Assembly: GCA_964057225.1 (NCBI GenBank)
Contig: OZ059894.1
Coordinates: 5,084,001 to 5,148,000, forward strand
Origin: Auanema rhodensis
Taxonomy: Eukaryota > Animalia > Nematoda
Direction: 5' to 3'
Length of the DNA stretch: 64,000 nt
A program made the translations under genes and the position numbers. The notes under the pieces were generated by a model. The model ran no database searches. It saw nothing but the letters and a program-made list of their open reading frames with translations, and was not told the origin of the DNA. Below are positions 4,287 to 26,648 of this stretch, piece after piece. The stretch's first letter is position 1, and every line of letters starts with the position of its first letter.

Positions 4287-6381
4287 CATAACTAATTTTT
4301 GTATTAAGCGTTCCTCAATGTAGTATAGTGCATTCGATGCGGATTTTTAAGCTGCGTCGATCTGTGTTATCAGATTTGCGCTAGCTTAAAAATGCACCGA
4401 GATATCAACTGATATAAGTTCACACTTATATCCTCGATTTTCACCCTGAAGAATTAATTTTTTCGTTGAATAACATTGTCCATCGTCTTTGCCTTGAAAA
4501 AAGGAATCTAAAAACATCTACTTTTTGCTAAATTATTTTGAAATTTTTCGAAAAAATTTTTGTCAAAATGTTTTTGGAAGCTATGTTGAGTGTACATGGA
4601 AACTCAACATACACTTATGCATCATTTTTCAAACGATCATAACTAATTTTTGTATTAAGCGTTCCTCAATGTAGTATAGTGCATTCAATGCGGATTTTTG
4701 AGCTGCGTCGATCTGTGTTATCAGATTTGCGCTAGCTTAAAAATGCACCGAGATATCAACTGATATAAGTTCACACTTATATCCTTGATTTTCACCCTGG
4801 AGAATTAATTTTTTCGTTGAATAACATTGTCCATAGTCTTTGCCTTGAAAAAAGGAATCTAAAAACATCTACTTTTTGCTAAATTATTTTGAAATTTTTC
4901 GAAAAAATTTTTGTCAAAATGTTTTTGGAAGCAATGTTGAGTGTACATGGAAACTCAACATACACTAATGCATTATTTTTCAAACGATCATAACTAATTT
5001 TTGTATTAAGCGTTTCTCAAAGTAGTATAGTGCATTCGATGCGGATTTTTAAGCTGCGTCGATCTGTGTTATCAGATTTGCGCTAGCTTAAAAATGCACC
5101 GAGATATCAACTGATATAAGTTCACACTTATATCCTCGATTTTCACCCTGAAGAATTAATTTTTTCGTTGAATAACATTGTCCATCGTCTTTGCCTTGAA
5201 AAAAGGAATCTAAAAACATCTACTTTTTGCTAAATTATTTTGAAATTTTTCGAAAAAATTTTTGTCAAAATGTTTTTGGAAGCTATGTTGAGTGTACATG
5301 GAAACTCAACATACACTAATGCATCATTTTTCAAACGATCATAACTAATTTTTGTATTAAGCGTTTCTCAAAGTAGTATAGTGCATTCGATGCGGATTTT
5401 CAAGTTGCGTCGATCTGTGTTATCAGATTTGCGCTAGCTTAAAAATGCACCGAGATATCAACTGATATAAGTTCACACTTATATCCTCGATTTTCACCCT
5501 GAAGAATTAATTTTTTCGTTGAATAACATTGTCCATCGTCTTTGCCTTGAAAAAAGAAATCTAAAAACATCTACTTTTTGCTAAATTATTTTGAAATTTT
5601 TCGAAAAAATTTTTGTCAAAATGTTTTTGGAAGCTATGTTGAGTGTACATGGAAACTCAACATACACTAATGCATTATTTTTCAAACGATCATAACTAAT
5701 TTTTGTATTAAGCGTTCCTCAATGTAGTATAGTGCATTCGATGCGGATTTTTAAGCTGCGTCGATCTGTGTTATCAGATTTGCGCTAGCTTAAAAATGCA
5801 CCGAGATATCAACTGATATAAGTTCACACTTATATCCTTGATTTTCACCCTGGAGAATTAATTTTTTCGTTGAATAACATTGTCGATCGTCTTTGTCTTG
5901 AAAAAAGGAATCTAAAAACATCTACTTTTTGCTAAATTATTTTGAAATTTTTCGAAAAAATTTTTGTCAAAATGTTTTTGGAAGCAATGTTGAGTGTACA
6001 TGGAAACTCAACATACACTAATGCATCATTTTTCAAACGATCATAACTAATTTTTGTATTAAGCGTTCCTCAATGTAGTATAGTGCATTCGATGCGGATT
6101 TTCAAGCTGTGTCGATCTGTGTTATCAGATTTGCGCTAGCTTAAAAATGCACCGAGATATCAACTGATATAAGTTCACACTTATATCCTCGATTTTCACC
6201 CTGAAGAATTGATTTTTTCGTTGAATAACATTGTCCATCGTCTTTGCCTTGAAAAAAGGAATCTAAAAACATCTACTTTTTGCTAAATTATTCTGAAATT
6301 TTTCGAAAAAAGTTTTGTCAAAATGTTTTTGGAAGCAATGTTGAGTGTACATGGAAACTCAACATACACTAATGCATCATT
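2086..6381. repeat. Long inverted duplication (arms 2086-4180 and 4287-6381, spacer about 106 bp)
   Basis: Rare variants mirror at positions summing to 8467, e.g. gactatgg (3632) / ccatagtc (4835), gctcaaaaatccgcattg / caatgcggatttttgagc, aaaactttt / aaaagtttt, gatcgacaatg / cattgtcgatc. One mismatch seen, at 3012. Confidence 0.9.
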
Positions 6382-20620: not shown

Positions 20621-21572
20621 GCTTAATACAAAAATTAGTTATGATCGTTTGAAAAATGATGCATTAGTGTATGTTGAGTTTCCATGTACACTCAACATTG
20701 CTTCCAAAAACATTTTGACAAAAATTTTTTCGAAAAATTTCAAAATAATTTAGCAGAAAGTATATGTTTTTAGATTCCTTTTTTCAAGGCAAAGACGATG
20801 GACAATGTTATTCAACGAAAAAATTAATTCTTCAGGGTGAAAATCGAGGATATAAGTGTGAACTTATATCAGTTGATATCTCGGTGCATTTTTAAGCTAG
20901 CGCAAATCTGATAACACAGATCGACGCAGCTTAAAAATTCGCATCGAATGCACTATACTACATTGAGGAACGCTTAATACAAAAATTAGTTATGATCGTT
21001 TGAAAAATGATGCATTAGTGTATGTTGAGTTTCCATGTACACTCAACATAGCTTCCAAAAACATTTTGACAAAAATTTTTTCGAAAAATTTCAAAATAAT
21101 TTAGCAAAAAGTAGATGTTTTTAGATTCCTTTTTTCAAGGCAAAGACGATGGACAATGTTATTCAACGAAAAAATTAATTCTTCAGGGTGAAAATCGAGG
21201 ATATAAGTGTGAACTTATATCAGTTGGTATCTCGGTGCATTTTTAAGCTAGCGCAAATCTGATAACACAGATCGACGCAGCTTAAAAATCCGCATCGAAT
21301 GCACTATACTACATTGAGGAACGCTTAATACAAAAATTAGTTATGATCGTTTGAAAAATGATGCATTAGTGTATGTTGAGTTTCCATGTACACTCAACAT
21401 TGCTTCCAAAAACATTTTGACAAAAATTTTTTCAAAAAATTTCAAAATAATTTAGCAAAAAGTAGAAGTTTTTAGATTCCTTTTTTCAAGGCAAAGACGA
21501 TGGACAATGTTATTCAACGAAAAAATTAATTCTTCAGGGTGAAAATGGAGGATATAAGTGTGAACTTATATC
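20618..21572 (+). repeat. 351-bp satellite (family A), about 2.7 monomers, forward orientation
   Basis: Orientation flips at gttgaat-AAC-gcttaatac (3-nt microhomology, 20618-20620); the array ends at ...gaacttatatc (21572). Confidence 0.95.
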
Positions 21573-21892
21573 GAAAGATAAAGAGATGCGGTTTTCAAAA
21601 TTAGATTTCGCATGTCCATATTAGTCTAAAAACAAATTTTTATTGATATTGGTGCATGGTAACCATGACTTTAAAATTTACGTGAACTTTAATTTATGCT
21701 AATTAAGTGTACACATGATGTGCACTTGGTATGTAACTCGCTTCAAGTCAAAGATAAAGAGATGCGGTTTTCAAAATTAGATTCCCCATGTCCATATTAG
21801 TCTAAAAACGAATTTTTATTGATATTGATGCATGGTAACCATGACTTTGAAATTTACGTGAACTTTAATTTATGCTTATTAAGTGTACACGT
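21573..21892 (+). repeat. 176-bp satellite (family B), about 1.8 monomers left of the LINE
   Basis: Starts gaaagataaagagatgcgg and ends aagtgtacacgt; same monomer as 26649-64000. Confidence 0.95.
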
Positions 21893-21901
21893 TTGAACGG
21901 G

Positions 21902-21907
21902 TTTATT
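21902..21907 (-). promoter_or_regulatory. Putative polyadenylation signal AATAAA at the LINE 3' end
   Basis: tttatt on the plus strand, about 9 nt from the 3' junction. The minus strand reads ttcgaac-AATAAAccc-gttcaaac. Confidence 0.5.
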
Positions 21908-22378
21908 GTTCGAATCACAGGTTAAAAGCGGAAACAATGTTAATAAATAGAGAAAATTGTAGATATACAGAAGAACCTTACAATACAAACATACATAATA
22001 ATTGGCTAGATATATGTAAATAAACGAGTCGTGCATATTTCCTTTTATTATGATAGCGTACAGCACTACTGGTGTGTTAAGGTTTCGAAGTTCTAGTTAG
22101 GTAGAGGAGAGAAAAGTTGTTCAGTGTAGATCACTGACCTCTGTAGTATTCTGACAGGTGCGGTGGAACTCTTGACATGAGTCGAGCCCGTTCTGACAGT
22201 AAGAGGTAACTAACGCTTGATCCATATGACTAATGTCTATAGGATTCGGAGCATAGTAACAGGTCTCGGAGGTTAACTAGGAAACTGTCTAACTATAACA
22301 TGCAGTGAGGCTAGCAGGCTAGTAATATGGAAAAAAATATACATGAGCAAGATTTCAAGTTACATTAATCAGAGCAGG

Positions 22379-25234
22379 TTAAAAATCATTTAAAATAACA
22401 GATAGGTGTTTTCTGAAGCTGGAGGTGTTTCTCAGTTGAATGATGTTTTCAGGAAGAGCGTTCCAGATTTGAATAGCTCTGTATTCAATTCCAGTTCTTG
22501 TTTCGCTTCTCCAAAGATCAGGATATTCAACATTCCATAGATGCCTACGAAGTGAATGTGCGTAGTGCTTGATAGTAAAAAAATTAAGGCTGTTTTCTGG
22601 AATGTTTTTAGTTATCTGATTGTGATAGAAGACGAGATCAATTAACAGTCTTCTAAAAGATAGTTCCTTAGCTCCAAGAAACAATAGCTGGTTTTTGTAA
22701 TCCAAAGCTATTTCGGCTCTCTTAAAAATAGCGTTCAAGAACTTTTTTTGTACGGACTCAATGCGTGCTTTATCTTTGTTATTTTGAGGGGACCATACAA
22801 CTGAGGCATATTCTAAAATAGGCCTGATATAGCAGCAAAACAGTTTAAACATCAAGGTAGGTGATCTTGAGTAAAAACAACGCAAGATAACACGACATTT
22901 GTGAGCAGCGATGTTAGAGATTCTATTTATATGGCTATTGAAAGAAAGATTATAGTCAGTACATACACCAAGATCTTTGTACGTTGTTACTGTGGCTAAC
23001 GAGATGTCGCCAAATTTGAAAATTGTGTTTAATCTTGATGTAGTAGTACTAGATATAATCATAACTTTAGATTTAGTAGTATTTACCTTCATACCGTTTA
23101 ATAGACACCAGTTTTTCAGGTTATCCAAGGCCAATTGTAAACTTACAGGATTAGTGCTGCTTAGTTTAAGATCATCCGCATAGAGAGTTGGATGCACGTC
23201 ATCGGGTAAGTTTGATGTGATGTCATTTATGTAAAATAGAAAAAGAAGTGGACCCAGAACTGTCCCTTGTGGAACTCCACAGGGCAAACGATTTGTGGCG
23301 GATAGAGAATAATTAACCAATACCGAGAAGGATCTATCAGTAATGAAATTTTTGAGAAAGGAGTGAATACAGCCGTCGATACCAATTGATTTTAGTTTAG
23401 TTAAAAGAACAGAATGATTTATAAGATCGAAAGCCTTGGAGAAGTCAATGAAGGCAACATAAACAGGTCTTTTCTTGTCCACTGAAGATCTCCAGAGTAC
23501 ATGACTACTAAGAATTGCCGATACAGTATTGCGTTTTGGAAGAAAAGCAAACTGATTAGGTGAAATACAGCCGGAGGAAATACCAAAATCAAGAAGAGGT
23601 GAACGGAGAAGACGTTCAAAAACTTTAGACAGACTGGATGTGAGAGAAATAGGGCGATAATTAACCGGGTTTGAAGAAAGCCCTGATTTGAGAACAGGAC
23701 GAATCCATGCTGTTTTCCAGTCAGCAGGGCAAGAGGAAGAAATAAGAAGATTGTGAAAGACAAAGGCTAGAGGCTGAGAAATAGTAGAAGCACAGTTTTT
23801 TAGGAAAAAATAAGGAATTCCGTCCGGAGAGGTTGATACCCGGAGAGGTAACTGACAGAGAATTTTGTAGACGTTGAGAGGGGAAACATCAATAAAATCG
23901 ATGATACCAGAAGAAGGGGAAACAGGAGCATGTGCTGAAGAGATAGAAAGAGGGTGGACAGAGAAGGTACTGGCAAAGATAGAAGCTTTGTCAGAATCAG
24001 ACGAGACAGAATTATTATCTATTTTGAGATCAGGGATATCTGAAGTGTTGCCGCCCAGACGAGTTCTGCAGAAACGGTAAAAAAGTTTTGAATTGTTATA
24101 GTTAGCAATACGTTCCTCTTCAGAAGCCAATATATTCTTGATGAGTTTATCAAGGGAAAGAGATAGTTTTTTACGGCGGGATTCATCATGATGATGATAA
24201 GAGGAACTAAGTTTGTTTATGTGAGAAGAGAGTTTTAAAATATCTCGGTCAATCTTCTTTTTTCTTCTTTCTTGTTTCCTGGGTACGCAGCAATCAATGA
24301 CCGAGTGAAGAATGTGAATAAATTTGGAATAAGAGTCTAAAGGAGTGAGACCGGAAAGATGACTAGCAAAATCAATGTTGGCTAGTCTATGGTTGATGAG
24401 GTTGTAATCGGCAGCTTGAAAATTACGATTAGAAAACATAGGAAGTGTTGCTGGGGAAGAAATATCGGAAGAGTTGATTGCAGTAGCTAGCTGAGAAGTG
24501 TCTGAAACAATATGGAAGACAACAGAATGATGATCCGAGGAACCGAGGGGAGAAGAACGAGCTATGTTGACTACACTAGATATGTTATCCGTGATAACAT
24601 AATCGAGAATGTTCTTGCCTCTGGTAGGGAACTTTACTAACTGATAAGAACAGCAGTCATTGAGAAATTGAAGAATAGATTTACTAGAGGAGCAAGGTTG
24701 TGAGCAAATACCGAGATCCCAATTAATTTTAGGGAAATTAAGATCGCCTGTTAGAAAGAACGATCGTCTAGAAATTTGTTTACGAAGATCAGAAAGAAAA
24801 AGAATGAAATCTGAATGAGACGCTGTTGGAGGACGATAACACAATGAAAAAACAGCATTGAGTGAAGGAATGAGTAAGTTAATAAATTGTATGGAAGATT
24901 GAGGGGAAGAGCAGGAAAGGAGACAGACTTTGACATGACTTTTCACATAGAGGACAACGCCACCACCACGTGAAAGACACCTATCGGCTCTAAAAATAGA
25001 GTAAGTATCTTTGCACGGGAGTAGGTAGGAATCGAACTCTGGAAAAAGCCAAGATTCTGATATAGCAATTATATCAGGAGAGGATAGGGAAATAACATGA
25101 GATAGTGAATGAAGTTTGTTTAGGATGGATCGTGCATTAAAACACTGAACTGAGAAGCTGGTAGGGTTAGCAGAGACAAGAGGGGTTGAGGACGAGACAA
25201 TGTTAACGAAAGGACATTTTGTCAGACGCGACAC
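22379..25234 (-). CDS. LINE ORF2: AP-like endonuclease plus reverse transcriptase (true start uncertain; frame open from 25249, no AUG until codon 266)
   Basis: APE motifs FNARS, ISESW, GGGV, YRPP, GDLN, ILDYV, SDH. RT motifs NYRPISLTS, QFAF, DFSKAFD, GVPQGTVLGPLLF, YADD, KDLGV. CR1/L2-type C-terminus RPILEYASVVWSP...IESVQ...WNALP. No RNase H or CCHC finger evident. The track start is GTG, not ATG. Confidence 0.95.
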   Translation of the reverse strand: MSRLTKCPFVNIVSSSTPLVSANPTSFSVQCFNARSILNKLHSLSHVISLSSPDIIAISESWLFPEFDSYLLPCKDTYSIFRADRCLSRGGGVVLYVKSHVKVCLLSCSSPQSSIQFINLLIPSLNAVFSLCYRPPTASHSDFILFLSDLRKQISRRSFFLTGDLNFPKINWDLGICSQPCSSSKSILQFLNDCCSYQLVKFPTRGKNILDYVITDNISSVVNIARSSPLGSSDHHSVVFHIVSDTSQLATAINSSDISSPATLPMFSNRNFQAADYNLINHRLANIDFASHLSGLTPLDSYSKFIHILHSVIDCCVPRKQERRKKKIDRDILKLSSHINKLSSSYHHHDESRRKKLSLSLDKLIKNILASEEERIANYNNSKLFYRFCRTRLGGNTSDIPDLKIDNNSVSSDSDKASIFASTFSVHPLSISSAHAPVSPSSGIIDFIDVSPLNVYKILCQLPLRVSTSPDGIPYFFLKNCASTISQPLAFVFHNLLISSSCPADWKTAWIRPVLKSGLSSNPVNYRPISLTSSLSKVFERLLRSPLLDFGISSGCISPNQFAFLPKRNTVSAILSSHVLWRSSVDKKRPVYVAFIDFSKAFDLINHSVLLTKLKSIGIDGCIHSFLKNFITDRSFSVLVNYSLSATNRLPCGVPQGTVLGPLLFLFYINDITSNLPDDVHPTLYADDLKLSSTNPVSLQLALDNLKNWCLLNGMKVNTTKSKVMIISSTTTSRLNTIFKFGDISLATVTTYKDLGVCTDYNLSFNSHINRISNIAAHKCRVILRCFYSRSPTLMFKLFCCYIRPILEYASVVWSPQNNKDKARIESVQKKFLNAIFKRAEIALDYKNQLLFLGAKELSFRRLLIDLVFYHNQITKNIPENSLNFFTIKHYAHSLRRHLWNVEYPDLWRSETRTGIEYRAIQIWNALPENIIQLRNTSSFRKHLSVILNDF
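25203..25214 (-). promoter_or_regulatory. Candidate +1 programmed ribosomal frameshift site UCC_UUU_CGU followed by the ORF1 stop UAA
   Basis: Plus strand ttaacgaaagga = minus strand TCC TTT CGT TAA in the ORF1 frame. A +1 slip (UUU to UUC) enters the ORF2 frame (TTC GTT AAC ATT = F V N I). Confidence 0.65.
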
Positions 25235-26270
25235 GTTGAGATGCAGGGTTCATGCTAACAGACCTGGTTATTTGATCTGAGGTTAACTTTGCAGATCGTG
25301 GTGGATTTTTGCGTCGTCTTGGGCTAACAGAAGAACGTTTATCTTTCGACGTGCGATTCTGTCTATCCTTCGATCGGCTTAATCTACCAGATTTACAAGG
25401 GGGGCTAGATAAAAGAATTGGAGACGTGAGTGTTTGAGAGTGTGGTGTTAATAAAGGAGCAGTGTGAAGGCATGGTGATTTGGGAGTTTGGTTACAAGCA
25501 GGGACAGGAGCTATTTGGGAATTTGGAGAATCGGTCGAATTACGGAAAACTTCAATGAGTCGGAGATCTCGTACCAAAAAGACGGACTTAGTGTTGTTTT
25601 TATTTTTTTCTTTAGCTTCCTCACGAAGGTTCTTTTCCAGTTGAATTTCAAAAGGAAGATAGTCGCGACGTATGAAAGTTTTGGATAAAGATTCAAAACA
25701 TTTAGTTTTATTCGTTTTGATAGATGTCATAATTTTATCACGCAATTCAACCGATGGACACGTGATGATGAGTGGACCGGGAGATTTAGATTTGAGGATA
25801 CAGCGTGCAATAGTTATTTGATTAGTATTGATCAGACTAGACAAAGTAGCGTCGTTGGATTTTTCAATGACCAGTTTAAGTAAAGAAGTAGGGTCAGAAG
25901 GTAAATCCGAGGAAGAGACCGGTACACGGAACCAGAGTGCTCTCTTACATCGATAATCATACTTTGTCTCTTCTGATCTAATTTTTTGAATTTGACATGC
26001 AACATTGGAGGAAGAGAGCAAAGAGGGTGAATTTGAGAGTGTGTTAGTACTGGTGAGAGAAAGTTGAGCTAACTTTTTCTCTAACTTTTCGAAACGAGAT
26101 TTGAAATCGGTTTCTATAAAAGTTATACGGGAGTCATGCTTTGCAACTGCGGTTTTAATACTACTGAGCTCATTTTTTATTTGTACTGATAATTCAGCAA
26201 AAGAATTATGTAGGGAGTCAGAAAGTGATTCGAGAGCAGTAGTAAGAAACTCGTTAGTTACGGGAGACAT
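25203..26270 (-). CDS. LINE ORF1 protein (putative coiled-coil nucleic-acid-binding chaperone)
   Basis: 355-aa ORF from the first AUG of the element, directly upstream of and overlapping ORF2. N-terminal heptad-like region (...FEKLEKKLAQL), a central segment ending RRDY...LREEAKEKN...VRDLRL, and a basic Ser/Pro/Arg-rich tail. Confidence 0.85.
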   Translation of the reverse strand: MSPVTNEFLTTALESLSDSLHNSFAELSVQIKNELSSIKTAVAKHDSRITFIETDFKSRFEKLEKKLAQLSLTSTNTLSNSPSLLSSSNVACQIQKIRSEETKYDYRCKRALWFRVPVSSSDLPSDPTSLLKLVIEKSNDATLSSLINTNQITIARCILKSKSPGPLIITCPSVELRDKIMTSIKTNKTKCFESLSKTFIRRDYLPFEIQLEKNLREEAKEKNKNNTKSVFLVRDLRLIEVFRNSTDSPNSQIAPVPACNQTPKSPCLHTAPLLTPHSQTLTSPILLSSPPCKSGRLSRSKDRQNRTSKDKRSSVSPRRRKNPPRSAKLTSDQITRSVSMNPASQRVASDKMSFR

Positions 26271-26295
26271 AGTTAAGTGAAAGAGCAGAGAAAAT

Positions 26296-26320
26296 AAAAA
26301 AAAAATATATATATATATAT
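26296..26320. repeat. A-run plus (AT)8 microsatellite in the LINE 5' UTR
   Basis: Direct reading: aaaaaaaaa atatatatatatatat. Confidence 0.8.
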
Positions 26321-26343
26321 GAAATAACAGGAAGAAAAGAAAA

Positions 26344-26418
26344 GAGAAGAAGAAAGTTGAAGAAAGATAAAAAAAAGAGAAGAAGAAAGTTGAAGAAAGA
26401 TAAAAAAAAGAGAAGAAG
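26344..26418 (-). repeat. 33-bp tandem duplication (about 2.3 copies) in the pyrimidine-rich LINE 5' UTR
   Basis: gagaagaagaaagttgaagaaagataaaaaaaa at 26344 and 26377, partial copy at 26410. Confidence 0.85.
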
Positions 26419-26505
26419 GAAAAAAAAAAGAGAGCGTACCTTGCAAAACCAGTCCGGCGTTATGGGATACAGAGAGACACGAGCAGGAGTCGACAATCGC
26501 GGAAT

Positions 26506-26647
26506 GAGGTCAAATCGCGGAGAGAGGTCAAATCGCGGAGAGAGGTCAAATCGCGGAGAGAGGTCAAATCGCGGAGAGAGGTCAAATCGCGGAGAGAGGT
26601 CAAATCGCGGAGAGGTCAAATCGCGGAGAGAGGTCAAATCGCGGAGA
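26506..26647 (-). repeat. 18-bp tandem repeat x8 forming the LINE 5' terminus (gaggtcaaatcgcggaga on plus)
   Basis: Units start at 26506, 26524, 26542, 26560, 26578, 26596 (16 bp), 26612 and 26630; a degenerate partial unit lies at about 26489-26505. Confidence 0.93.
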
Positions 26648-26648
26648 A

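Follow-up and report, generated by a model that had tools for sequence, protein, structure and literature searches.

Influenza A virus produces PA-X by a +1 frameshift in which the P-site tRNA slips from UUU to UUC with an efficiency of 0.7-1.3%, the shift being abolished by UUC_AGA and lowered by 40-70% by changes in the E site (PMC3498833), and no stimulator is evident for this site (PMC5009743); whether motifs of the PA-X type also serve cellular gene expression is left open by the study mapping it (PMC3498833). A fusion of the ORF1 product with the polymerase has likewise been proposed for amalgaviruses at UUU_CGN, with any CGN codon (PMC5052127), and how initiation takes place on open reading frame (ORF) 2 of long interspersed nuclear elements (LINEs) is treated as an open question, with UAAUG coupling, reinitiation and an internal ribosome entry site being named as options (PMC3894237). 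The subject of the present analysis is a LINE within a 64,000-nucleotide (nt) stretch of the genome of the nematode Auanema rhodensis (GenBank assembly GCA_964057225.1, contig OZ059894.1, positions 5,084,001 to 5,148,000; hereafter the window, to whose numbering all coordinates refer), the two ORFs of which meet at the very same 9-mer, UCC_UUU_CGU, and which, judging from its sequence and from the computational comparisons described below, probably makes a 1296-amino-acid (aa) ORF1-ORF2 fusion by low-level +1 slippage at the UUU_C of this motif.

The features of the element that matter for this proposal are the following:

25203..26270, reverse strand: ORF1, 355 aa from the ATG at 26270, comprising a coiled coil, an RRM, a C-terminal domain and a disordered tail, and ending in K-M-S-F-R-stop
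25206..25214, reverse strand: UCC_UUU_CGU, predicted +1 shift site and the final three sense codons of ORF1
25203..25205, reverse strand: ORF1 stop codon TAA, adjoining the motif
25215..25225, reverse strand: candidate reinitiation starts, CTG 25225 in the ORF2 frame and AAA-ATG with the ATG 25217 in the ORF1 frame
25250..25252, reverse strand: TGA, the upstream closure of the ORF2 frame
22379..25249, reverse strand: ORF2 frame, 956 codons long and in +1 with respect to ORF1, with 942 codons after the predicted shift
24530..25141, reverse strand: APE endonuclease domain (PF03372, PF14529), entirely 5' of the first in-frame ATG
24437..24439, reverse strand: first in-frame ATG of ORF2, codon 271 from the upstream stop
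23057..23668, reverse strand: reverse transcriptase (RT) domain (PF00078, E 2.2e-32), YADD intact

The 3' end of ORF1 reads ATG TCC TTT CGT TAA, and the sequence bears out what an earlier note on this DNA had stated: the motif is found at 25214-25206 in the ORF1 frame with TAA next to it, and ORF2 is in the +1 frame and open only from 25249, behind the TGA at 25252-25250, which leaves an overlap of 47 nt. That TGA confines entry into ORF2 to the overlap or to positions further downstream, and, with the SDH motif of the endonuclease at codon 238 of the ORF2 frame, all of the endonuclease residues precede the first in-frame ATG (24439), which the earlier note had placed correctly past SDH, although the codon number it gave, 266, applies only when counting from GTG 25234. 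The site thus described has a zero-frame UUU followed by CGN, with the preferred UCC in the E site, and the +1 frame past it is open and encodes a functional product for which no other entry is evident. Neither a SART1-type stop-start (UAAUG) is present at the junction (the stop is followed by CATT, and the AUG of the AUGA at 25253 is in the ORF1 frame) nor a layout for -1 tandem slippage (X_XXY_YYZ with ORF2 in the -1 frame), and no stable stimulatory RNA structure is predicted 3' of the motif (z +0.47).

By analogy with PA-X, tRNA-Phe in the P site on UUU, with CGU in the A site, would re-pair on UUC, after which the next codon would be GUU (Val), giving a product with the junction ...DKMSF-VNIVSSS... 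and a predicted trans-frame tryptic peptide MSFVNIVSSSTPLVSANPTSFSVQCFNAR; the earlier note had derived both this junction and the length of 354 + 942 = 1296 aa correctly, 354 being the count up to Phe. As most ribosomes would read Arg and then stop, ORF1p would be expected in large excess over the fusion, and the UAA one codon past the site might, speculatively, raise the rate of slippage. The fused enzyme would bring along an ORF1p portion of its own for trimerisation and RNA binding, and this may tie it to the RNA that codes for it.

Compared with influenza A PA-X, as described in PMC3498833, the LINE has the identical zero-frame 9-mer, an open +1 frame beyond and no predicted downstream stimulator, whereas its motif belongs to a eukaryotic retrotransposon and is positioned directly 5' of the ORF1 stop, and its +1 product would be an essential polymerase and not an accessory tail. 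The amalgaviruses share with it a coiled-coil ORF1 product joined to a polymerase via a proposed UUU_CGN +1 shift, but they are double-stranded RNA viruses with overlaps of 287-968 nt, as given in PMC5052127, and not APE-RT LINEs with an overlap of 47 nt. L1 and SART1 (PMC2881922, PMC3894237 and PMC5009743) resemble the element in being bicistronic and APE-type, in the L1-like fold of ORF1p and in the low ORF2 output expected, and differ in that their ORF2p is a protein in its own right, produced by coupled reinitiation (in SART1 at UAAUG), while the LINE described here has neither a stop-start overlap nor an AUG before the endonuclease. Retrotransposon polyproteins made by frameshifting are also found in the Gag-Pol of Ty1 and Ty3, both +1, and in the gag of HeT-A (PMC3498833 and PMC5009743); the Ty elements, however, are long terminal repeat retrotransposons with other shift sites, and HeT-A, which lacks an RT, has its shift inside gag.

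The 9-mer TCC TTT CGT occurs once in the whole window, both strands counted, and, under the codon usage of the element itself, the chance of finding exactly TCC_TTT_CGT in the 14-codon overlap is 2-3 in 10,000, that of TTT_CGN about 0.015 and that of TTT_C 0.06-0.11. The earlier note had called the motif improbable by chance; such figures exaggerate the surprise because many recoding signals were possible and this one was picked after the fact, and they are further diluted by many LINEs being scanned for many motifs, which makes conservation the real test.

Other copies were compared using contigs from four sequencing runs of three studies (one of the runs possibly being the window's own source), aligned to 24900-25560 with a likeness of 80%; in 9/14 listed runs, at least half of the words of the element were present. 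Contigs spanning the ORF1/ORF2 junction were obtained in all four runs and are of two types, one about 99% like the window and the other, seen in three runs, a second subfamily that differs at 49 of 449 nt (~89% identity). Among the listed differences, no indel, new AUG or substitution falls at 25201-25228 in either type, nor is there a listed change at the TGA 25252-25250; the sole listed gaps of the ~89% subfamily are three single bases at 25166-25171 that preserve the ORF2 frame, and about six further changes beyond the listed rows appear, from the pattern of those rows, to fall at 25264-25325, outside the motif. In the endonuclease stretch 5' of the first AUG, the listed changes between the subfamilies comprise 9 synonymous and 3 non-synonymous ones, so this stretch is likely translated. 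Since other copies keep the layout without an indel, an AUG or a listed motif change, the AUG-less +1 layout is the state of the family and not a defect of one copy. One 301-nt "joint" that might have been taken for a fused copy was rejected, its short side being only 24-28 nt and a match to a more diverged family at two places being the better reading; LINE families of this more diverged kind, present in the same runs, have their matches confined to 25041-25082 and 25382-25409, one of their contigs being 4160 nt long.

More distant relatives were sought with HMMER, which returned 20 matches to ORF1, the three best of which (E 3e-23 to 5e-18, 30-33% identity to the query) are gene models of the nematode Auanema sp. 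JU1783, in keeping with a nematode host, that fall into separate 50% clusters (CAI4220742.1, CAI4221027.1 and CAI4220829.1) and, where compared in two pairs, are 38% and 43% identical to one another. Their C-termini read LTSFRK, QNSFR and HSTFRK, so that in the query and in all three relatives F-R stands 0 or 1 residue from the C-terminus, even though the spacer before the terminal motif is of a different length in each of the four aligned proteins; the chance of such a terminal F-R, given the tail composition, is about 4e-4 per protein. Only 1/56 other distinct ORF1 ends, taken from unrelated LINEs, has a terminal FR, namely that of locus L212 (DSFRH), which is itself a +1 overlap reading GAT TCA TTT CGC CAC TAA. 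That F-R floats with respect to the terminus is more in line with an RNA signal than with a protein-level C-terminal motif, as far as protein sequences can tell. No close relatives were found by word-index protein searches (46 matches for ORF2 at 21-31%, 25 for endonuclease fragments at 28-37%, and none for ORF1 among 3349 candidates, the N-termini of the matches being uninformative as to the motif), by a DNA scan of metagenome contigs with a single endonuclease query or by a DNA scan of genome and viral contigs with the ORF1 alignment, while a wider ORF1 profile run against five sequence collections gave one weak match, L265, which has a -1 junction, and the ESM Atlas gave only unnamed eukaryotic clusters (0.90-0.92).

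A survey of related LINE junctions started from 299 sequences (298 loci and the window), 177 of which had an endonuclease match, 153 the first-strand Asn motif and 72 an upstream ORF of at least 160 codons, yielding 55 distinct ORF1/ORF2 junctions; these do not represent independent hosts, because many come from G001 and G002. No AUG precedes the endonuclease in 23/55. All 17 in-frame adjacent junctions have a stop context of the leaky kind (TAG-G in 11, TGA-C in five and TGA-A in one). The generalisation that in-frame junctions never use TAA was tried and fails outside the 55-junction set, where L327 has TAA-G (and L320 TAG-T). An in-frame X_XXY_YYZ heptamer is present in 12/15 of the -1 overlaps, often at their very start, vs. 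0/13 of the +1 overlaps (P 1.5e-5), and in-frame TTT_C was counted 6 times in 272 codons of the +1 overlaps, the window excluded, vs. 2 times in 692 codons of the -1 ones (P 0.008), three of the six being CCC_TTT_C. A junction signal that matches the frame is hence shown strongly for -1, suggested for readthrough and only modestly indicated, as UUU_C, for +1, and the pattern as a whole raises the prior for ORF1-ORF2 fusion by recoding in this LINE group. Among the +1 junctions of G001, the ORF1 frame reads TCA TTT CGC in L212, CCC TTT CAG TAA in L093, CCC TTT CCG in L164 and CCC TTT TAG in L211, and these four may be +1 shift sites of a second host lineage; within a single ORF1 family of G001/G002, in-frame, -1 and +1 junctions are found side by side. 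In a prokaryote species collection, 556/603 pattern matches code for LINE ORF2 relatives, and it follows that many prokaryote assemblies carry eukaryotic contamination.

Quite a few observations weigh against slippage at this site and should be taken together. Once a terminal S-F-R is given, the synonymous chance of TTT_CGN is P 0.31-0.45 and that of the exact 9-mer P 0.04-0.05, and the unchanged motif and stop (12 nt) in the ~89% subfamily are to be expected with P 0.17-0.25, which is weak alone. The majority of the ORF1 matches (17/20) have no terminal [ST]FR, 4 of these 17 being fused ORF1+endonuclease gene models, and the three relatives that do have it are automatic gene models of one species, not independent of each other and compared as proteins, not as codons; S/T-F-R could be a protein-level motif, since the tails of the relatives have other short motifs in common. 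In the upstream part of the overlap (25229-25247), 4/5 listed changes hit a third codon position in ORF2 and each of the four altered ORF1 codons is non-synonymous (P 0.045), a pattern that hints at entry into ORF2 5' of the motif and that a shift at 25210 does not explain, although it may be noise, the ORF1 tail being disordered and tolerant. As for the survey, the enrichment of TTT_C is not significant when counted by family (5/12 vs. 2/15, P 0.11), has P 0.07 without the three longest overlaps and P 0.067 in the last 12 codons (3/12 vs. 2/42); the exact UCC_UUU_CGN is found in 0/12 other +1 junctions, and a further +1 junction, L329, is without any TTT. Finally, the CCC TTT CCA of L004 codes for part of what is presumably a PAM2-like peptide, the LNxxxxxFxP at the ORF1 C-termini of L004 and L091 resembling what we take to be the PAM2 motif that binds poly(A)-binding protein.

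It is against this background that other ways of reaching ORF2 have to be considered. An unlikely, albeit by no means far-fetched, one is that a separate ORF2 protein arises when ribosomes terminate on ORF1 and reinitiate at a non-AUG codon close to its stop (e.g., CUG 25225), as proposed for mammalian L1, with S/T-F-R being a protein-level feature or due to chance. ORF2 of L1 is indeed thought to start by an unusual AUG-independent initiation (PMC5009743), and ORF2 translation in SART1 and L1 depends on the translation of ORF1 (PMC2881922); in the element itself, CTG 25225 is inside the stretch without a listed change between the subfamilies, the third-position changes of the upstream overlap would suit such a start, and an AUG precedes the endonuclease in 8/13 surveyed +1 overlaps. 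What reinitiation leaves unexplained, however, is that the conserved terminal residues are those coded by UCC_UUU_CGN while floating 0-1 residue from the C-terminus, and that the sole other terminal FR (of 56 ORF1 ends) is coded by UUU_CGC at a +1 junction; moreover, the other near-cognate starts (GTG 25234 and ATT 25201) differ between the subfamilies, which was counted for +1 slippage, and the context of CTG 25225 is C at -3 and A at +4. A hybrid route, in which ribosomes would stop at UAA, reinitiate at AUG 25217 (AAA-AUG, ORF1 frame), read M-S-F and then make the same +1 slip to give an ORF2 product free of ORF1p, could draw upon the position of this AUG 12 nt 5' of the stop, its A-rich context and the lack of a listed change there between the subfamilies, but Met precedes S/T-F-R in 0/3 relatives, and very little protein would result from two inefficient steps following one another, which makes it a very improbable explanation.

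Splicing of a minor RNA that would fuse ORF1 to ORF2 in frame, e.g., by removing a 58-nt intron from GT 25207 to AG 25150 or one of 238-247 nt ending at the same acceptor, finds in-frame GT-AG pairs and a GCTAAC at 25171-25166 that presumably resembles a branch point; the odds are nonetheless strongly against it, as the acceptor TTCTCAG and the donor GTTAAC fit what we take to be the nematode consensus poorly, there is no TTT(C/T)AG between the stop and the endonuclease start, the second subfamily lacks GCTAAC and has an altered acceptor, and the listed joints include no intron-less DNA copy of the kind to be expected from cis-acting retrotransposition. That the junction is a defect of the window copy or of the assembly, with active copies having a fused ORF or an AUG, as the earlier note had allowed for, might be suspected from the four fused ORF1+endonuclease gene models among the 20 ORF1 matches, but is scarcely credible: it has already been largely refuted by the junction-spanning contigs of all four runs and both subfamilies, which show neither a fused ORF nor an ORF2 AUG nor a listed motif change, and the three distant relatives end at the same place. 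Low-level +1 slippage at UUU_C is accordingly retained as the probable route to ORF2.

As regards the element and its surroundings, the remaining features are as follows:

21891..26648, reverse strand: full-length APE-type LINE, 4758 nt, intact
26495..26647, reverse strand: tandem array of an 18-bp unit (8.6 copies) at the element's 5' end
21891..22378, reverse strand: 3' untranslated region of about 490 nt, with AATAAA and a short tail at its end, without a poly(A) run

ORF2 encodes an APE endonuclease followed by an RT, both with intact catalytic residues, and ORF1 has the layout of a LINE nucleic-acid chaperone, its predicted fold (mean pLDDT, i.e., predicted local distance difference test, 75, low in the tail) finding its best match in human L1 ORF1p (Foldseek 2ykq, E 1.7e-5). 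The element presumably belongs to the CR1 group, a label that rests on its motifs, on matches at 26-37% identity and on the missing target-site duplication and that does not stand for a placement in an RT tree. The window is nearly all satellite, with a 351-bp array at 257-21572, whose orientation reverses near 4287 and 20620, and a 176-bp array at 21574-21890 and 26649-64000; the LINE, 317 bp from the border of the two arrays (21572-21574), cleanly interrupts one 176-bp unit at CATCAC|GTGTAC, its ends (21890/26649) being without a target-site duplication unless a 2-nt AC is counted as one. The 18-bp repeats are possibly promoter monomers, and downstream of them is a pyrimidine-rich leader with 33-bp repeats (26332-26418), no ATG being present in the 5' leader.

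Frameshifts have been guessed earlier for some overlapping LINE ORFs. The earlier note's reading of a low-level ORF1-ORF2 fusion has thus gained computational support, but the fusion as such is not novel, recoding-type junctions looking common in this LINE group; what seems to be new is the +1 signal of the PA-X type in a LINE. The literature search returned no report of a LINE with a UUU_CGN or PA-X-type site; it did not extend to Repbase notes and older subscription papers, in which frameshifted LINE junctions may be described. Taken more broadly, and with a confidence only somewhat better than even, a large branch of animal LINEs may express ORF2 in the manner of retroviral Pol, as a recoded ORF1-ORF2 fusion, swapping freely among readthrough (UAG-G, UGA-C), -1 slippage and +1 slippage, with a nematode-type lineage using the PA-X signal, for which this would be the first case in a genome-resident element of eukaryotes and which would have been kept across families that are only 30-40% identical.

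The ORF1-ORF2 junction of this element offers a short and exact test case both for the translation of LINE ORF2 and for PA-X-type motifs in the expression of cellular genes. If the proposal is true, the LINE enzyme would be a fusion resembling Gag-Pol, with a 9-nt signal fixing its ratio to ORF1p, the annotation of ORF2 in such families would change and a physical basis for cis preference would be suggested. The survey suggests that the same logic, implemented by other signals, is widespread among related LINEs.

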